A DNA stretch of 64,000 nucleotides from an uncultured Pseudomonadales bacterium (GTDB lineage: Bacteria > Patescibacteriota > Microgenomatia > UBA1400 > UBA12028). Under the pieces are notes generated by a model, which searched no databases, was not told the origin of the DNA, and worked only from the letters and a program-made list of their open reading frames with translations. The stretch is from NCBI GenBank assembly GCA_964509365.1, contig CAZDWN010000001.1, positions 11,074 through 75,073 of the forward strand. The letters run 5' to 3'. The position numbers and the translations under genes were made by a program. Shown in pieces: positions 37,999 to 60,930 of this stretch. The first letter of the stretch is position 1, and every line of letters begins with the position of its first letter.

Positions 37999-38643
37999 AT
38001 GTATGATATTTCTCTAGTAGTGAGGACTCCATCACCGGCCGATACCGACGATCTCCAGACGATTGTGAGAGAATTTTCGCAGATCAAGAACTATATATTT
38101 GACTCACACCCCGATGTGACGCTGCTCAAACCCTTAGAGGACAAGGTGAGTATCTCGATCGATCAAGTCCATGGCCTACATGCGAATCTCTCTTTGTCTC
38201 CAGTGATGGGAGCTCAAAAGGTCCTGCTCATTCATCCGGCACATGCACTGACCTTGCCAGCGCAGCAAGCGATGCTCAAACTGCTCGAGGAGCCACCGAG
38301 CAAAGTGTTGTTTATTCTCGTCACGCATACGCCGTATGTATTGCTCCCAACCATTCTCTCAAGATGCCGAATAGTGTTTCCCCTTACTCAAGGGGAAATA
38401 GCCAAGCAAAGCATAGCTGAAGGGGTCGTGACAAGAGAGGTGAAAAACCACGCCGAAGCGATCAAAATTTCAGACGAGTTCGGCGCAAAGAAAGACACTG
38501 CGCTTGCGTATATACACAATGTAATAGCGACAGCAGATGATCCACATGTCAAAAAAGCAGCTATTAAAGCCTTGGGACTCCTAAACAAAAACATCAATGC
38601 GAAATTAGTCCTAGATCAGTTTTTGTTCTCAACATTGAAGTAG
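37999..38643 (+). CDS. holB: DNA polymerase III delta-prime subunit-like
   Basis: LKLLEEPP and ILSRC motifs of clamp-loader delta-prime/gamma. No Walker A. Confidence 0.6.
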   Translation: MYDISLVVRTPSPADTDDLQTIVREFSQIKNYIFDSHPDVTLLKPLEDKVSISIDQVHGLHANLSLSPVMGAQKVLLIHPAHALTLPAQQAMLKLLEEPPSKVLFILVTHTPYVLLPTILSRCRIVFPLTQGEIAKQSIAEGVVTREVKNHAEAIKISDEFGAKKDTALAYIHNVIATADDPHVKKAAIKALGLLNKNINAKLVLDQFLFSTLK

Positions 38644-39586: not shown

Positions 39587-41545
39587 ATGCCAGTCAATGA
39601 TTACAAAGCCTCCGATATCCGCGTTCTTGAGGGATTGGAGCCAGTGCGCAAGCGCCCAGGTATGTACATCGGATCGACCGATGCGACGGGTCTGCATCAT
39701 TTGGTGAAAGAAATTGTCGACAACTCCGTCGATGAAGCGATCGTCGGCTACGCAAAGTCAGTTGGCATCTATTTGACCAAAGATGGCTATGCGACCGTCG
39801 TCGATGATGGCCGCGGTATCCCTGTCGATATGCACGTCTCCGGAGTCAGCGCTCTCGAGATCGCCATGACGAAGTTGCACGCCGGTGGAAAATTTGACGA
39901 GATGGCATACCAAGCATCAGGTGGTTTGCACGGTGTTGGCGCCTCAGCGGTCAACGCCTTATCTGATGACATGCGCGTGGTAGTCAAACGCAATGACACC
40001 TACTACTTCCAGGAATACACGATCGGGACCCCGAAAGAAAAAGTAAAAGAGATCAAAGAGGCAAAAGTCTTGGAGCTGTTTCCGCTGGCGGGTCCACAGC
40101 TTGTCGCCAATAAGAGTGGGACGCTCTCAAATTTCCATCCAGACAAAACAATTTTTTCGACCATTGAGTTTAGTGCCAAGATCATCGAAGACTTTATTCG
40201 TGAGCGCGCATACCTCATGGCCGGTTTGTACTTTAAATTGGTCGACGAAGCCAACGAAGCAGAAAAGCATTTCTACTTTGAAGGTGGTATCCGCTCGCTC
40301 GTCACGCATTTAAATCACAATAAAAAAGCCCTCCACCCAGCTATCTCCATGACCGGAGAGTTCCAGGCAGAGAAATTCAAAGTCTTTGCGGATGTCGCGG
40401 TCCAATACAACGATACCTATAGTGAGACGATCGAAAGTTTCGCCAATACGATCAAGACACCAGATGGTGGCACGCATTTGACTGGCTTTCGCACGGCCCT
40501 CAACAAATCACTCAAAGATTATGTGACCAAAAACGAACTGGTGAAAAATGAAAAAGACATGTTCACGTCGGAAGATCTGCGCGAAGGACTCACAGCGGTC
40601 ATCTTCGTCAAGATGCCGAGTAATGACATCCAGTTTGAAAGTCAGACCAAGACCAAGCTAAATAACGCCGAAGTCCAATCCGCGGTCTATCAGATCGCCA
40701 AAGCTGGGCTTGATCAATATTTCGAAGAGCATCCAAAGGAAACTCGCACGATCATCGATAAAGTGATGCTCGCAGCTCGTGCTCGTATGGCAGCGCGCGC
40801 CGCCAAAGATGCAGTCATCCGCAAAGGTGTCTTTGAAGGAAGTAGTTTGCCAGGCAAATTGGCAGACTGTCAAAGTAGTGACGCAGCTGAATGTGAACTC
40901 TACATGGTCGAGGGTGACTCCGCCGGTGGCTCAGCCAAGCAAGGTCGCGATCGCAAGTTCCAAGCTATTTTCCCGTTGCGAGGCAAGATCCTCAATACCG
41001 AGCGTGCACGACTCGACAAGATCGTGGACTTTGAAGAACTGAAAAACTTAGTCATTGCCTTGGGTACGGGACTTGGTGATACGTTTGATATCAGTAAACT
41101 TCGCTATCATCGCATCATCTTGATGAACGATGCTGACGTCGATGGAGAGCACATCACGACGCTTGGGCTCACATTCTTCTATCGCCATCTCCCGCAGATC
41201 GTGGAGCAGGGGTATCTCTATATCGCCATGCCACCACTCTTTAAGATCTGGAACAAAAAAGATGTCCGCTATGCATTCACCGAAGAAGAGCGCGAAGCGG
41301 CACAAAAAGAATTGTCAGTGGGCAATGCGGTCGTCAATGTGCAGCGCTACAAAGGTCTCGGTGAGATGAACCCAGAGCAGCTCTGGGAGACGACCATGGA
41401 TCCGACGAAACGAATGCTCAAACGCATTACGTTGGATGAGGCAGCCAAAGTGGATGAGGTCTTCACGACTCTGATGGGTGATGAAGTTCCACCACGAAAG
41501 AAGTTTATTCAAACGCATGCGAAGTTGGCCAACCTTGATATATAG
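39587..41545 (+). CDS. gyrB: DNA gyrase subunit B
   Basis: GHKL ATPase motifs (LHHLVKEIVDNSVDEA, LHAGGKFD, GLHGVGAS). Toprim EGDSAGG. C-terminal PLRGKILN. Confidence 0.95.
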   Translation: MPVNDYKASDIRVLEGLEPVRKRPGMYIGSTDATGLHHLVKEIVDNSVDEAIVGYAKSVGIYLTKDGYATVVDDGRGIPVDMHVSGVSALEIAMTKLHAGGKFDEMAYQASGGLHGVGASAVNALSDDMRVVVKRNDTYYFQEYTIGTPKEKVKEIKEAKVLELFPLAGPQLVANKSGTLSNFHPDKTIFSTIEFSAKIIEDFIRERAYLMAGLYFKLVDEANEAEKHFYFEGGIRSLVTHLNHNKKALHPAISMTGEFQAEKFKVFADVAVQYNDTYSETIESFANTIKTPDGGTHLTGFRTALNKSLKDYVTKNELVKNEKDMFTSEDLREGLTAVIFVKMPSNDIQFESQTKTKLNNAEVQSAVYQIAKAGLDQYFEEHPKETRTIIDKVMLAARARMAARAAKDAVIRKGVFEGSSLPGKLADCQSSDAAECELYMVEGDSAGGSAKQGRDRKFQAIFPLRGKILNTERARLDKIVDFEELKNLVIALGTGLGDTFDISKLRYHRIILMNDADVDGEHITTLGLTFFYRHLPQIVEQGYLYIAMPPLFKIWNKKDVRYAFTEEEREAAQKELSVGNAVVNVQRYKGLGEMNPEQLWETTMDPTKRMLKRITLDEAAKVDEVFTTLMGDEVPPRKKFIQTHAKLANLDI

Positions 41546-41637: not shown

Positions 41638-42078
41638 ATGGTAACGCAAGAAAAATTTAGAGAGCGAACTGAGCAATTACGGCAGATGTTTGAAGAAGCA
41701 CGATCTGAATTTACAGAACAGGATCTTCAATGGAATGCATATGTACGCAATGCCAAAATGACAATAGAAAAGGCAGATGAAGAATTTGTGCATGATTTAC
41801 CAAATGATGACAAACGGCTAGACTACGGACTCGAATTAGTAGAATATGCAATTCAATGTATTGAGGTGGGACTGGGCATACCGATGATCGTCACTTCTAT
41901 GAGAGAGCTCGTAGAATATTGGTCAATTCCGAACACGGATACTTTTATATTTCCAAGTATCTCTGGAATTGATGCATACATTAAAGACTATGAAGCGGGA
42001 AAACGTACGGAGACACCAAAAGCTATGCTTTTACATCTACGTCAACTTGAATCACAATTACAAGCAGTCAGGTTGTAA
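41638..42078 (+). CDS. hypothetical protein
   Basis: 146-aa ORF. Confidence 0.35.
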   Translation: MVTQEKFRERTEQLRQMFEEARSEFTEQDLQWNAYVRNAKMTIEKADEEFVHDLPNDDKRLDYGLELVEYAIQCIEVGLGIPMIVTSMRELVEYWSIPNTDTFIFPSISGIDAYIKDYEAGKRTETPKAMLLHLRQLESQLQAVRL

Positions 42079-42092
42079 AAAAAGGAGCCCTT

Positions 42093-42764
42093 ATGGACAT
42101 GAAAAAAATGTTGTTCTTCATCGAGATCCCAGACGGGAGTGACGTGAAGTATGAAGTGGACGAAGAGACGGGGATGCTCATGGCAGACCGCTTTTTGTAC
42201 ACCTCCATGGGATACCCAGCAAACTACGGCTATGTCATGGGGACCAAAGGCAAAGATGGCGACCCAGTCGACGTCTTGGTCTTAGCAAGTAAAAAAGTAA
42301 ATGCTGGCGTCGGAATCAAAGGCCACGTCATCGGTATGCTCGAGATGGAAGATGAAGAAGGGATTGATCACAAGTTGATCGCCGTCCCAGATAAAAAAGT
42401 CGACCCAATCTTCGGAGTCTGGGAAGATTTGAAGGATGTCCCAGAGAGTACATTAAATCGCATCAAGCATTTCTTTGAACACTACAAAGAATTAGAGCCA
42501 GGGAAGTGGATCAAAGTGCACAAATTCCAAGATCGCAAGACCGCAGAAAAAGAGATCGTAGAATCAGCCAAGAAATTTGAATCAGAGTGTGAGATGTGTA
42601 GCGCCGATGGCTGTTCATGCGACTGCCAGAACTGCAAAGAAAAAGAATGCTGTGGCAAATGCGAGAAATGTGTCGATGGACAGTGCGAATGCGCATCCGG
42701 ACACTCAGATTGCGAATGTGGTGGGCACTGCCACTGTGGAGACTCACACATCCCATCAAAATAG
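42093..42764 (+). CDS. ppa: Family I inorganic pyrophosphatase fused to a C-terminal Cys/His-rich metallothionein-like tail
   Basis: PPase core (YEVDEETG, DGDPVDVLVL, HKLIAVP). The last ~50 aa are CEMCSADGCSCDCQNCKEKECCGKCEKCVDGQCECASGHSDCECGGHCHCGDSH. Confidence 0.8.
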   Translation: MDMKKMLFFIEIPDGSDVKYEVDEETGMLMADRFLYTSMGYPANYGYVMGTKGKDGDPVDVLVLASKKVNAGVGIKGHVIGMLEMEDEEGIDHKLIAVPDKKVDPIFGVWEDLKDVPESTLNRIKHFFEHYKELEPGKWIKVHKFQDRKTAEKEIVESAKKFESECEMCSADGCSCDCQNCKEKECCGKCEKCVDGQCECASGHSDCECGGHCHCGDSHIPSK

Positions 42765-42894
42765 AACCAGGGATTTACTGCTCGAGCGCAGGACAGCAAC
42801 GCTGACCGCAGTCGAGAGCCAACGCGTTTCTCGACATCACGCACTTTGTGCTTGATACTCGAAAAGTAAAGAAAGTATATAGAAAAGTATTTTT

Positions 42895-43101
42895 ATGGCA
42901 AATTCTGAAAACGAAAGTCAAGCGGACAAAGTTGATGAGCTGTTATTAGTCCTGCAGAATGATCCTCAGATCAAGGAGTTGTTTCGAGAATTGACGGCGC
43001 TCGTCGACAAAGACAAGCAGGATGAGCATATGACGAAACTAAGCCTATTTATGTCAACATACTTTAGTCGCATGCTAGATTTAGCGTTTGCCCGGAAGTA
43101 G
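42895..43101 (+). CDS. hypothetical small protein
   Basis: 68-aa ORF. Confidence 0.3.
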   Translation: MANSENESQADKVDELLLVLQNDPQIKELFRELTALVDKDKQDEHMTKLSLFMSTYFSRMLDLAFARK

Positions 43102-43112
43102 AAGAGTAAATT

Positions 43113-43385
43113 ATGGAAAAAGGTTCACATCTAGAAAAAGTATTAGGTTTCATTGAAGCTTTATCTGAGAAGGTTCGAAATCTTATCGGGCCAGCTATTA
43201 TGCGATTGTATGGGATTGAAGAAGACAATAATGCTTTGCTTGATTCCGATGCGGATTGGCTACCTGAAAGTTTTTCGCCGGATCAACCGACGAATCCATT
43301 ACAAGAGCAGATAGCAGCCGCATTTAAATCAGGCGAAATAAAAATTGGAGGAATAGGAGAAGGACAGATAAAGAAAGAAGACTAA
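43113..43385 (+). CDS. hypothetical small protein
   Basis: 90-aa ORF directly upstream of gyrA. Confidence 0.3.
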
Positions 43386-43387
43386 GT

Positions 43388-46063
43388 ATGGCAGATACCA
43401 CCGAAAAACCATCCGAAGAAGCAGAGATCACCCCAGTCGTGGTCGACCCGACAGCCGATTATTCGACCAGATTTGGGACGATTCGTCCGACCTCGATCAT
43501 CACTGAGATGCAAAAGTCATATCTTGACTACGCCATGAGTGTGATCGTCGCTCGTGCACTTCCGGATGTCCGCGATGGGTTAAAGCCGGTGCATCGCCGT
43601 ATTTTGTTTGCCATGAAGGAAATGGGCATCCGCTGGAACACTCCATACAAGAAGTCTGCTCGTATCGTCGGAGAAGTCTTGGGTAAGTATCACCCACATG
43701 GTGATGCTCCAGTATACGAAGCAATGGTTCGTTTGGCGCAAGATTTCTCCATGCGCTATCCACTCGTGGATGGTCAGGGAAACTACGGAAGTATAGACGG
43801 CGATTCCGCAGCCGCCATGCGTTACACCGAAGCGCGTATGGCCAAGATCAGTGAAGAGCTGCTGGCTGATTTGGAAAAAGAAACAGTCTCGTTTGTCGAT
43901 AACTTTGACGGATCTTTACAAGAGCCGAGTGTCTTACCAGGAAAACTTCCAAACCTCTTATTGATGGGATCAGAAGGTATCGCTGTCGGTATGGCGACCA
44001 AGATCCCTCCACACAACTTGACTGAAGTCTGTAATGCCATTCTCAAAGTAATTGAAATGGGAGAGGCAAAACAAGAGATAAGAGACAAGAGACAAGAGAC
44101 AGAAGAATTGAATGTCGAGACCGGTGAAGCCAAACTCATCGCTGGACACTTTGACTCCGAAGCCACGATAGACGATATTTGTGAATTCGTCCAAGGTCCA
44201 GACTTCCCGACAGCGGGCACCATCTATGATTTCAAAGAGATCAAAGAAGCGTACGCGACTGGTCGCGGTCGTATCTTGATCCGAGGCAAAGCTGAGATCG
44301 TCGAAAATAAAAATGGAAAATTCCAGATCATTGTCACCGAGTTGCCATATCAGGTCAATAAAGCCAAACTGGTCGCCAAGATTGCACAATTGGCCAGAGA
44401 CAAAAAGTTGGTAGGGATTGCGGATCTTCGTGATGAGTCAGACCGCGACGGTATGCGCATCGCCTTTGATCTGAAGAAAGATGCTCGTCCAAAGTCAGTG
44501 CTCAACGCGCTCTACAAGATGACCGAGCTGCAGACGACGTTCCCGATGAATACGGTGGCGATCAACTCCGAAGGTACGCCACAGCTCATGAACGTCAAGA
44601 CGATCATGATGGAATACATTCGTCATCGTCAGACGGTGGTCGTGAAGCGAGCGCAATTTGACCTCAAAGCCGCTCGAGCGCGAGCGCATATCCTCGAAGG
44701 ATTGCTCATTGCTCTTTCAAACTTGGATGCCGTCATCAAGACCATTCGCGAATCCAAAGATTCTGACGAAGCAAAGAAGAACTTGATGGAACGATTCAAA
44801 CTTTCAGAGATCCAGTCAGTAGCCATCCTCGATATGCAGCTACGAAAGCTTGCAGCACTTGAGCGATTGAAGATCGAAGAAGAGTACAAAGCACTCATGA
44901 AGTTCATCGAAGAATTATTGACACTTTTGAAGAGTCCAAAGAAAATCTTGGAGACGATTGGCACCGAAGTGAAGCAAATGATCGAGACGCATGGCGATGC
45001 CCGTCGGACCAAAGTCCACAAAGGCAAGCTTGGAGAGATCAATGAAGAAGATTTGATCCCAAATGAACCGACGATCATCACCGTCACCGAGACTGGATAT
45101 ATCAAGCGACTCAATCCATCTGCATATCGCACCCAGCATCGCGGAGGCAAGGGCGTCAGTGGAATGACGACAAAAGATGAAGATGCAGTTTCAGAACTCC
45201 TGACTTGTGATACGCATGATAGTTTGCTGTTGTTTACCAATAAAGGTCGCGTGTTTAAGAACAAAGTCTATGAATTGCCAGAGTCTTCACGCATAGCCAA
45301 AGGGCAAGCGATCGTGAACTTGGTGAACTTGACTGCCGATGAGCACATCCAAGCGATCTTGACACTTAATGAGAAGAGTCCAGCAGGCAAATACATTTGT
45401 CTTGCGACTCTCAAAGGGATGATCAAGAAGACCCCACTTGCGGACTTCTCAAATATCCGTACCTCAGGCATCATCGCCATCATTTTGAAAGATAATGACG
45501 AGTTAGTCTTTGGTCGCATCACCACTGGTGAAGATCACATCATGATCGTAACCAACGAAGGCAAGTCGATCCGCTTCCACGAAAAAGAAGTAAAGAGTAG
45601 TAATCGCGATACTCAAGGAGTGAAGGGCGTCGAACTCAAAGGAACTGACTATGTCGTCGGCGTCGAGAGTTTCCCACCAGAACTGGCGATCCCTGAAGAC
45701 AAACGTAAGAAATTCTTCCGCCATGTCTTGGTCGTCACTGAAAAAGGAATGGGCAAGCAAACTGAGTTGACTGAGTATCCACTGCAAAAGCGAGCGGGCT
45801 TAGGAGTCAAAGTGAGTGAGATTGCTGACAAGACTGGGAAAGTTGCCTGTGCTAAGATCGTCGACGAGACAATTGATGATGTCGTTTTGACTACAAAATC
45901 AGCGCAAGTGATTAAGTTGCCACTTCGGAACATTCCTGTACTCAAACGTCCGACTCAAGGAGTGATCTTGATGCGCCTCGACAAGGGTGATTTGATTACT
46001 GCCTGCGCGACGACCAAAAAGCCAGTTGAGGAAGAAATTGCGGAAGGCAGTCTGGAAGTTTAG
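43388..46063 (+). CDS. gyrA: DNA gyrase subunit A
   Basis: [25 protein letters not shown] with active-site Tyr region. C-terminal beta-pinwheel repeats. Confidence 0.95.
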
Positions 46064-46601: not shown

Positions 46602-47372
46602 ATGTTTCGATCTTTTTTTGCTCCACTCGTCGGCACACTTGCCGCTATTGTCTTGATCGTGCTCGTCACCAAAGTCACCGGACCGATCCCCCTTTCGATC
46701 TCGCAGACGACAACCAACAAAATGTCTTCATTTGATGTCAGTGGAGAAGGGAAAGTCGCCACTTCACCAGATAGAGCTGAGATTAGCCTCGGGATCCAAG
46801 CAAATGAGTCGACGGTCAAAGCCGTGCAAGATAAAGGCAATCAAGTGATCAATCAAATCACTCAAGATCTCTTGGCACTAGGAGTCGAGAAAGCAGACAT
46901 CAAGACGACGAACTACAGTCTCTATCCAAACTATGATTATCGGTCTGGCAGTCAAAAGATCACTGGCTATGCGCTCAACGTGAGTGTGCAAGTGAAAGCT
47001 CAAGATTTCTCAAAGATCACGCAGATCGTCGATACCGCTACCAAAGACGGAGCGAATCAAGTCGGTGGCATCAACTTCACATTGTCAGATGATAAAAAGA
47101 AGCAAGTCGAGGATCAAGTCAGAGCCGAAGCAGTCAAGCAAGCCAAAGCCAAAGCTGAGTCTCTTTCGAGTCTTGCAGGCGTAAAACTTGGCCGAATTAT
47201 CAACATATCCGAGAACTCAAATAGTGGCGTCCCACCAATCTATCCGATGATGGCAAAGTCACAAGCTTTGGATGCAGTCGGCGGAGCAGGGGGGACTGCT
47301 GCTCCCACCAACGTCGAGCCAGGAAGTACGACGTTCACCATGACCGTCACGCTGTCTTACGAGACTCTTTAG
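46602..47372 (+). CDS. SIMPL-domain (DUF541/BP26-like) secreted protein
   Basis: Signal anchor, then GEGKVATSPDRAEISLGI... typical of SIMPL/BP26. Confidence 0.6.
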   Translation: MFRSFFAPLVGTLAAIVLIVLVTKVTGPIPLSISQTTTNKMSSFDVSGEGKVATSPDRAEISLGIQANESTVKAVQDKGNQVINQITQDLLALGVEKADIKTTNYSLYPNYDYRSGSQKITGYALNVSVQVKAQDFSKITQIVDTATKDGANQVGGINFTLSDDKKKQVEDQVRAEAVKQAKAKAESLSSLAGVKLGRIINISENSNSGVPPIYPMMAKSQALDAVGGAGGTAAPTNVEPGSTTFTMTVTLSYETL

Positions 47373-60195: not shown

Positions 60196-60930
60196 TTACT
60201 TTTTCTTGAGTCGTCCAGAGCGAATATAGAGGAGGACAAATCCCCCAACCATCGTCAAAAGCGACCAGACTGTATAAAACATCGGAAGTGAAACTATTGC
60301 GTACGGGATTTGATAAAGATTGGAAAGAATGCCGAGGAATCCGATGACGATGAGAAAGGCACAAGTCACAAATCCAGTCTGTGCGCTACTTCGTCGGTAG
60401 CGATACCAAAAGTACGCGCGATAGGATCGCTCAAAGTACACGAGCAGTCTGCTGATCCCATAGGTCGCCGCTGCTCCGAGGATCAACGTGATCAGATATG
60501 CGATGGGAAGCTCTGTCTTACCGATCAGTGTACTGAGGACCAGTGTGACTGCCTGCCAAGCCATATACCCAGCCAAAAAGATTGGCACCGCGACGATGAC
60601 ATTGTCGAGCAATCCATATTTGTCTCTCCAGTTCTCACGCAGCAGGAGGTAAAACGAGACGCAAAAGAGCACGACTCCGACCTGCCAGGACGCACTAGCG
60701 CTCATGGGGCTCAAGAGTGCGAGTGGTGAGATTGTATGGCGCAGCAGCATATCTACTCCGCTCGGGAGGCGACTCAGATACCAGGCGACGATGGATGCGA
60801 TGATGACACGATCGAGTGCGAGTGGGACGTCGTCGACATGCTCGCGCTCCAACGATCGCCAAAGCGTAAAAAACGTGAGGTAGATGCTGAGGATGACGAG
60901 GAGTGCTTTGAGGATCGTAATAGCGAACAT
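60196..60930 (-). CDS. polytopic membrane protein, unknown function
   Basis: 244 aa with about 7 TM helices. Confidence 0.45.
   Translation of the reverse strand: MFAITILKALLVILSIYLTFFTLWRSLEREHVDDVPLALDRVIIASIVAWYLSRLPSGVDMLLRHTISPLALLSPMSASASWQVGVVLFCVSFYLLLRENWRDKYGLLDNVIVAVPIFLAGYMAWQAVTLVLSTLIGKTELPIAYLITLILGAAATYGISRLLVYFERSYRAYFWYRYRRSSAQTGFVTCAFLIVIGFLGILSNLYQIPYAIVSLPMFYTVWSLLTMVGGFVLLYIRSGRLKKK

Follow-up and report, generated by a model that had tools for sequence, protein, structure and literature searches.

The window analysed here is a 64,000-nt stretch of the genome assembly GCA_964509365.1 (contig CAZDWN010000001.1, positions 11,074 to 75,073 of the forward strand), from an uncultured bacterium that is ultra-small and of groundwater type. 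Between its gyrB and gyrA genes lies ppa, an open reading frame (ORF) for a family I soluble inorganic pyrophosphatase (PPase) that runs on into a C-terminal tail rich in Cys and His (Table 1). Re-reading of the sequence reproduced exactly the coordinates, the strand, the 223-AA product and the tail string reported in an initial annotation, but the recount of tail residues gave 16 Cys and 4 His instead of 18 and 5. The predicted N-terminus, MDMKKMLFF, agrees with the start of the homologues in the alignment. Rfam, tRNA, promoter and terminator scans returned nothing relevant to ppa, the one tRNA-Leu lying far off, and no second PPase was found in the window. No exact copy of the protein is on record in public assemblies, where the closest sequences are 88–90% identical.

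Table 1. Features of the ppa locus and its surroundings; positions are those of the window.
Feature	Position	Strand	Basis
holB, DNA polymerase III delta'-like	37999..38643	+	PF13177, E=3e-25; synteny
gyrB, upstream neighbour	39587..41545	+	93-95% amino acid identity to gyrB in related loci with Pfam gyrase B domains
Variable ORFan, 146 AA, between gyrB and ppa	41638..42078	+	no match to a Pfam or NCBIfam family; homologues absent from 25 related loci
Shine-Dalgarno-like AGGAG	42083..42087	+	5 nt 5' of the ppa ATG; read from the sequence
ppa, family I soluble inorganic pyrophosphatase with Cys-rich C-terminal tail	42093..42764	+	223 AA plus stop; ORF listing, translation, Pfam, NCBIfam
Catalytic PPase core, residues 9-162	42117..42578	+	Pfam span; Cys-free; 14/14 active-site residues
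Predicted C-terminal helix, residues 148-172	42534..42608	+	AlphaFold2; extends from the core and takes in C166 and C169, the first two tail Cys
Cys/His-rich tail, residues 166-223 (C166-K223), 58 AA	42588..42761	+	residue counts, dN/dS, pLDDT
Antisense ORF, 120 AA, across the tail	42482-42844	-	ORF listing
Variable ORFan, 68 AA, between ppa and gyrA	42895-43101	+	no family; no homologue in related loci
Variable ORFan, 90 AA, between ppa and gyrA	43113-43385	+	no family; no homologue in related loci
gyrA, downstream neighbour	43388..46063	+	92-95% amino acid identity to gyrA in loci L002 and L030

The enzyme part of the protein, described initially as a complete family I core, proved to be just that. 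The PF00719 match reaches E=4.8e-53 (179.5 bits against a cut-off of 23.5), and the score for the NCBIfam equivalog NF002317, 'inorganic diphosphatase', is 203.8 bits, which passes the threshold of 200. By sequence, 43 distinct PDB entries match at E<=0.001, the best at about 1e-47. In an alignment with E. coli Ppa (UniProt P0A7A9) the core is 47% identical, and the active-site residues E11, K19, E21, R33, Y41, Y45, D55, D57, D60, D87, D92, K94, Y131 and K132 are identical, 14 out of 14, to E. coli E20, K29, E31, R43, Y51, Y55, D65, D67, D70, D97, D102, K104, Y141 and K142. Among 33 aligned relatives most of these positions are invariant and the remainder are kept in at least 90%. AlphaFold2 models the core with a predicted local distance difference test (pLDDT) score of about 90 as an OB-like beta-barrel with a C-terminal helix; the best Foldseek match is the Helicobacter pylori PPase 2bqx (TM-score 0.91, root-mean-square deviation 1.5 A), and the top 50 matches are all PPases. 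We therefore predict, from sequence and model, that the PPase is catalytically competent, with no sign of enzyme degeneration.

Residues 1–165 do not contain any Cys. The tail starts without a linker, in frame on this 165-residue enzyme and with no internal start, and Cys makes up 27.6% of its residues, accompanied by 11 Asp/Glu, 5 Lys and no Phe, Tyr or Trp. Against a background of 0.98% Cys in the long ORFs of the window, the binomial chance that 58 residues would include at least 16 Cys is about 4e-19, which puts the enrichment well outside what chance allows. The gaps from one Cys to the next are 2, 4, 1, 1, 2, 4, 0, 2, 2, 4, 1, 6, 1, 3 and 1 residues, and the tail terminates in GHCHCGDSHIPSK. 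Beyond the C-terminal surface helix the pLDDT drops below 50, save for a weak, short beta-hairpin at residues 192–199 (CEKCVDGQCEC); such low values are to be expected if the fold depends on metal. Neither tandem nor internal DNA repeats were detected in the tail, so nothing points to a recent expansion by slippage. In 282 kb made up of the window and related loci, no other genuine Cys-dense coding region was present, which argues against a genome-wide compositional quirk. Likewise, the search of the window and 29 loci for stand-alone metallothioneins or other Cys-rich ORFs gave no real candidates, the matches being in antisense or non-coding frames. One locally Cys-dense frame of this kind, at 60310-60729 (+), has 5 Cys in 20 residues; it runs antisense to a 244-AA membrane-protein ORF at 60196-60930 (-) and is most likely non-coding.

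The tail is not confined to the window. We collected the best 120 PPases from 5.8 billion protein clusters (121 with the PPase of the window), and 51 of the 120, hence 52 of 121, carry a Cys-rich tail of 12–68 residues with 3–17 Cys; more distant or tail-less PPases end cleanly right at the C-terminal helix. The tailed homologue P0001, 90% identical to the protein of the window, occurs as an identical protein on five contigs from five sequencing runs. In a codon comparison with the gene for this orthologue (locus L003), the ratio of nonsynonymous to synonymous substitution rates (dN/dS) was about 0.10 over the tail, compared with 0.085 over the core. Many of the conserved tail Cys codons are swapped between TGT and TGC, and it is the residues between the Cys that vary. 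For the P0002-type orthologue (locus L001) synonymous sites are saturated, leaving dS of the tail undefined, and 13 of the 16 Cys positions are retained. The low dN/dS, the TGT/TGC swaps and the same-frame tails of homologues together indicate that the tail is real, translated and under purifying selection centred on its cysteines. Codon-position conservation favours the + frame only, and by the same token the antisense ORF across the tail is evidently a by-product of composition.

A neighbour-joining tree built from the core domains of the 121 PPases, with tail states assigned by Fitch parsimony, was used to follow the history of the tail. All 52 tailed proteins fall within one clade, and the reconstruction needs nine changes, which we read as one gain and about eight losses. 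On this tree the tail was evidently acquired once, in the ancestor of a Microgenomates (Woesebacteria-like) sub-lineage of the Candidate Phyla Radiation (CPR), and was lost secondarily several times. Genuine tail-less proteins within the clade are found on long contigs (e.g., P0030 and P0045 of locus L014); others may be fragments. Among species-representative genomes, tailed PPases occur in those labelled Woesebacteria, Microgenomates group, Paceibacterota or Patescibacteria, and tail-less ones in Roizmanbacteria, Levyibacteriota and others. These labels are inconsistent: one tailed protein is filed under 'Saccharimonadia', and the gyrA of that genome is 78% identical to that of a Microgenomates metagenome-assembled genome (MAG). 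By gyrA, tailed genomes are at least 64% identical to the window and most tail-less outgroups 46–50%, with a partial gyrA from tail-less Levyibacteriota (L024) at 64.5% over 330 residues. The MAGs nearest to the window have GyrA 92–95% identical, and GyrB is 87% identical to that of a Woesebacteria MAG. Several third-party-annotation MAG records (L008, L010, L013, L014 and L019) are titled 'uncultured Pseudomonadales/Gammaproteobacteria bacterium' and carry CPR-type loci; with GyrB 66–93% identical to that of the window and the same synteny, their titles are evidently placeholder mislabels.

The architecture had been called uncommon in the initial annotation, which also proposed a survey of PPase homologues for the extension. 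The survey shows that it is rare among PPases at large but typical of this CPR sub-lineage; with 52 tails among the 121 closest PPases, it is a clade-wide trait and no one-off of the window.

Between the first and the last Cys, the 52 tails consist of 38% Cys, 15.5% Gly, 13% Asp, 11.5% Glu, 5% Lys and 3.6% His, with virtually no aromatic or aliphatic residues (Tyr about 0.1%). The most frequent Cys spacings are CxC (149), CxxC (90), CC (67), Cx4C (48) and Cx3C (42). A loose shared skeleton can be aligned (C-x-C-x2-C ... C-x-C ... G-C-C ... C-G-G-x-C-x-C-K), in which the long type of tail seen in the window looks as if a stretch had been inserted within the 30-residue type. The ending '...CxCK' is shared by 18 tails, one subclade has polybasic KKKGKK-type termini and several relatives have HxH-rich ends such as EHKHEHHHEHK, GHGHTHTK and GHDHQHEEK. 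The C-termini of P0037, P0038, P0047, P0003 and P0009 are examples, with HxH-rich runs (EHKHEHHHEHKEEKK, EHKHDHTHKHEHK, GHDHQHEEK, GHGHTHTK) or polybasic ends. These two kinds of ending are distinct elaborations of the same appendage, and could differ in metal preference or localisation.

In composition the tail resembles metallothioneins. These typically have about 15–30% Cys in CxC, CxxC and CC arrangements, and gaps of 0, 1 and 2 residues dominate both the tail of the window and the 52 tails as a set; few or no aromatic residues are expected as well, as found here. The high Cys content, motifs and lack of aromatics are shared with bacterial SmtA/BmtA, mycobacterial MymT, vertebrate MT2 and yeast Cup1, and like metallothioneins the tail is predicted by AlphaFold2 to be disordered without metal and evolves fast in length and sequence around conserved Cys. 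A segment with the pattern CxCx6CxCx3CxC nearly matches the first six Cys of the vertebrate MT2 beta-domain (11 of 22 residues identical), a likeness that we take for convergence. Metallothioneins are, however, small free-standing proteins, and the tail of the window sits on an 18-kDa enzyme.

Searches with the tail for metallothionein or other Cys-rich families, a check that the initial annotation had recommended, found no family. No Pfam match was obtained at E<=10, and among PDB sequences nothing relevant was seen, only copepod-type luciferases at E=3, i.e., by chance. An exhaustive HMMER search of 1.84 billion representatives with the tail alone returned three spurious matches to eukaryotic repeat proteins without Cys-rich tails. 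A word-index search gave no candidates either, but that reflects a limit of the method, as P0001 does share 17 pentamers with the query. Pairwise BLASTP against SmtA gave E=0.096, the resemblance to the zinc-finger-like CxC...CAxGH...CxC core of that family being confined to a loose 'CASGH...CGGHCHC', and Smith-Waterman scores against SmtA, human MT2A, MymT and Cup1 lay at z=1.5–2.0 relative to composition-preserving shuffles, with SmtA at 1.6. Homology to the reference metallothioneins was thus not detectable, composition accounting for the similarity, and with the Pfam and BLASTP results membership in the SmtA/BmtA family (PF02069) was rejected too. Two further candidates also failed: a SCIFF/ranthipeptide-type precursor of a ribosomally synthesised and post-translationally modified peptide (no NCBIfam SCIFF match and no adjacent radical S-adenosylmethionine maturase) and a YacG-like gyrase inhibitor (no family match). 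Judged from its sequence, the tail is metallothionein-like by Cys content, motifs and lack of aromatics, and is not a member of any known sequence family. The resemblance to a bacterial metallothionein noted at the outset thus stands for composition and motifs, and does not extend to detectable homology with SmtA/BmtA or any other family.

The surroundings of ppa are those of a replication-gene block. The order holB-gyrB-ppa-gyrA was found in 18 of 18 species-representative CPR loci, tail-less ones included, and on every extra contig examined. Since tail-less lineages keep this synteny, ppa already lay between the gyrase genes in the ancestor of the group, whether or not a tail was present. 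Having a PPase gene within the gyrase pair looks like a signature of the lineage, and the gene order suggests co-expression of ppa with replication functions. The PPase had been viewed initially as one of four small ORFs inserted between gyrB and gyrA. Four ORFs are indeed present, but one of them is ppa itself, whose place there is no insertion, and the variable part is limited to the other three (146, 68 and 90 AA).

These three ORFans have no homologues even in genomes with 93–95% identical GyrB. In relatives, the gyrB/ppa slot holds unrelated ORFs of 62–109 AA or is empty, and for the slots on either side of ppa taken together the ORFs are 62–139 AA long or missing. As a set, the products of both slots are small (62–146 AA), acidic and mutually unrelated, even where GyrB and GyrA are 92–95% identical; those compared were L001 5659-5988 and 6678-7097, L030 9739-9987 and 10690-11052, L026 1055-1327 and L028 5794-5982. 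The slots flanking ppa look like a hypervariable ORFan hotspot within an otherwise rigid replication-gene block. Downstream of gyrA, at 46602-47372 (+), the window encodes a SIMPL/DUF541 protein (Pfam E=1.3e-53), which has the same relative position in L030.

As to function, it is quite probable that the tail binds metal of some kind, going by its sequence, and we lean, with less assurance and by analogy, towards an appendage with which an abundant PPase would buffer or store metal as thiolates. This reading follows from the combination of an intact PPase, a clade-wide tail under selection, a metallothionein-type composition and independent His-rich elaborations; the lineage-specific HxH-rich additions are likewise metal-ligand sequences and therefore favour metal binding. 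The intrinsically unstructured tail would fold only around thiophilic metal ions, forming metal-thiolate clusters with Zn(II) above all, but also Cd(II) and Cu(I), and with Ni or Co where relatives carry HxH-rich ends. Our guess, from the content of His and Asp/Glu, is that Zn(II) is more likely than a pure Cu(I) site, and that the HxH-rich variants prefer Ni or Co. Mammalian metallothionein uses 20 Cys for 7 divalent ions, and SmtA 9 Cys and 2 His for 4 Zn. By analogy with such clusters, 16 Cys and 4 His would hold about 5–7 divalent ions per tail and about 30–40 per particle, provided that the enzyme forms hexamers as its bacterial relatives do.

As PPase is abundant, constitutive and usually hexameric, the fusion would make it a cytosolic metal buffer or store, with a capacity set by tail length (3–17 Cys in the clade). 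A separate metallothionein gene or regulator would then be unnecessary, which would suit a genome of roughly 1 Mb, and a possible side benefit would be the shielding of the carboxylate Mg2+ active site from inhibitory soft metals.

Several observations weigh against such a role. The tail matches no Pfam family, its similarity to reference metallothioneins is within the range explained by composition, and it is much more acidic than the Lys-rich animal metallothioneins. No metal-homeostasis genes are adjacent to ppa. The tail was lost in several lineages within the clade and is thus dispensable, and no core substitution co-varies with it (at least 85% vs. at most 10%), leaving direct coupling to catalysis unsupported. 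Repeated loss, the five-fold variation in Cys number and the absence of co-varying core sites do fit an accessory capacity trait rather than one integral to catalysis.

It is possible, if improbable, that the tail acts instead as a structural or interaction module of small Zn-knuckle-like units, which would tether the PPase to partners, nucleic acid, the membrane or other hexamers. The strictly conserved holB-gyrB-ppa-gyrA linkage would supply candidate replication or gyrase partners, the beta-hairpin at residues 192–199 hints at local structure, and the polybasic KKKGKK-type ends of one subclade could bind DNA or membrane. The synteny, however, is equally kept in tail-less lineages, and a five-fold variation in length and Cys number with loosely conserved spacing is unlike dedicated interaction domains. 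The low pLDDT of the tail, its repeated loss and the lack of a Zn-finger family match point the same way.

Rather doubtful, too, is a thiol redox device, be it a sacrificial buffer against reactive oxygen species, sulfide or electrophiles in cells without glutathione, or a switch of PPase activity or oligomerisation. It would make sense of 16 reactive thiols attached to a Cys-free core and of the purifying selection on Cys residues, and metallothioneins also serve as redox buffers. Yet CPR bacteria are mostly anaerobes, the His- and HxH-rich elaborations of relatives favour metal over redox chemistry and there is no co-variation in the core; a length variation that looks like one of capacity fits a switch poorly.

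We consider it quite unlikely that the tail works as a metal- or redox-responsive module, whose loading with thiophilic metal, or whose oxidation, would either alter the activity of the PPase or join its hexamers by metal-thiolate clusters between molecules. If it did, the metal or redox state of these ultra-small cells would govern the removal of pyrophosphate and, through it, the flux of biosynthesis and replication linked to the holB-gyrB-ppa-gyrA block, and the protein would represent a new class of regulated family I PPase, parallel to the CBS-domain-regulated family II PPases.

Ligation of one or more Fe-S clusters is very improbable: the high Cys density, some CxxC spacing and the anaerobic, iron-rich groundwater habitats suggested by MAG names would suit it, but the tail lacks Pro and the classical motif CxxCxxCxxxCP of ferredoxins, its Cys are arranged mainly as CxC and CC, the Cys number is highly variable (3–17) and no Pfam Fe-S family matches at E<=10. 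An artefact, be it a frameshift or read-through of the stop codon (both raised at the outset as what might refute the tail), an error of assembly or an untranslated 3' sequence, is backed by nothing beyond the antisense ORF and can practically be discarded in view of same-frame tails in 51 of the 120 best homologues from many samples, the identical P0001 on five independent contigs, a dN/dS of about 0.1, with synonymous changes at third codon positions of the + frame, and the clean stops directly after the C-terminal helix in tail-less relatives.

Returning to the metal-buffering appendage, its consequences would reach beyond this locus. Knowledge of bacterial metallothioneins is patchy and covers few examples, and our literature searches turned up none from CPR: among 8 million full texts we found no paper on metallothionein together with CPR or Patescibacteria, and none on a PPase with a Cys-rich tail. 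In a 2024 review of microbial PPases the words 'cysteine' and 'metallothionein' are absent (PMC11210485), and public records name the tailed proteins simply 'inorganic diphosphatase'. If the proposal is true, the tail, on an enzyme both abundant and essential, would be the first candidate metal-buffering device for minimal-genome CPR organisms and an economical 'metallothionein by fusion', with no added gene or regulator and a capacity tunable via tail length. For PPase enzymology it would offer a natural system in which to ask whether a thiolate chelator, tethered to the enzyme, keeps soft metals from inhibiting a carboxylate/Mg2+ site, and in practical terms a stable, soluble, hexameric scaffold with six Cys-rich tails would be attractive for metal capture. 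If the tail binds no metal, it would be just a curious low-complexity extension.

Compared with known systems, the architecture is undescribed in the literature we found, and its components are of known kinds, namely a metal-binding tail on a housekeeping protein and metallothionein-like chemistry. Residues 1–165 make up a full member of the family I PPases, as represented by E. coli Ppa and the H. pylori PPase (1ygz/2bqx). Characterised members end at or just past the C-terminal helix, whereas the PPase of the window continues into the tail, over which none of the matched solved structures extends.

The sole enzyme-metallothionein fusion that we found in the literature is Runella aurantiaca 'TrxA', a chimera of thioredoxin and metallothionein, i.e., of known families, whose recombinant form bound Zn, Cd and Cu and made for higher tolerance of Zn (PMC13578184). 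Like the tailed PPase, it has an enzyme domain followed by a C-terminal part, and AlphaFold models the enzyme with confidence and the metallothionein part poorly. Its metallothionein part, however, is 98% identical to Synechococcus SmtA and stands behind a 56-residue linker, whereas the PPase tail is de novo-like, follows without a linker and is conserved across the phylogeny of 52 natural sequences. The thioredoxin part of the Runella protein is 96% identical to enterobacterial (Citrobacter/Klebsiella) thioredoxin (PMC13578184). From these identities, the record may be a cloning-construct or expression-vector contaminant rather than a native Bacteroidota gene.

Closer parallels are provided by lineage-specific, ligand-rich extensions of housekeeping proteins, a description that applies to the PPase tail, which is found in one clade, outside of which the proteins end at the helix. 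The E. coli peptidyl-prolyl isomerase SlyD carries a His/Cys/Asp-rich C-terminal tail that follows the same buffering logic. The closest functional analogy is the C-terminal His/Cys domain B of the H. pylori GroES homologue HspA, which binds Ni and contributes to Ni homeostasis and tolerance (PMC5116745). Both are lineage-restricted, ligand-rich C-terminal extensions on an abundant oligomeric housekeeping protein. The HspA host is a co-chaperonin, and its tail has no sequence relationship to that of the PPase and is dominated by His (8 His and 4 Cys, the latter forming disulfides), in contrast to the 16 Cys and 4 His of the window tail.

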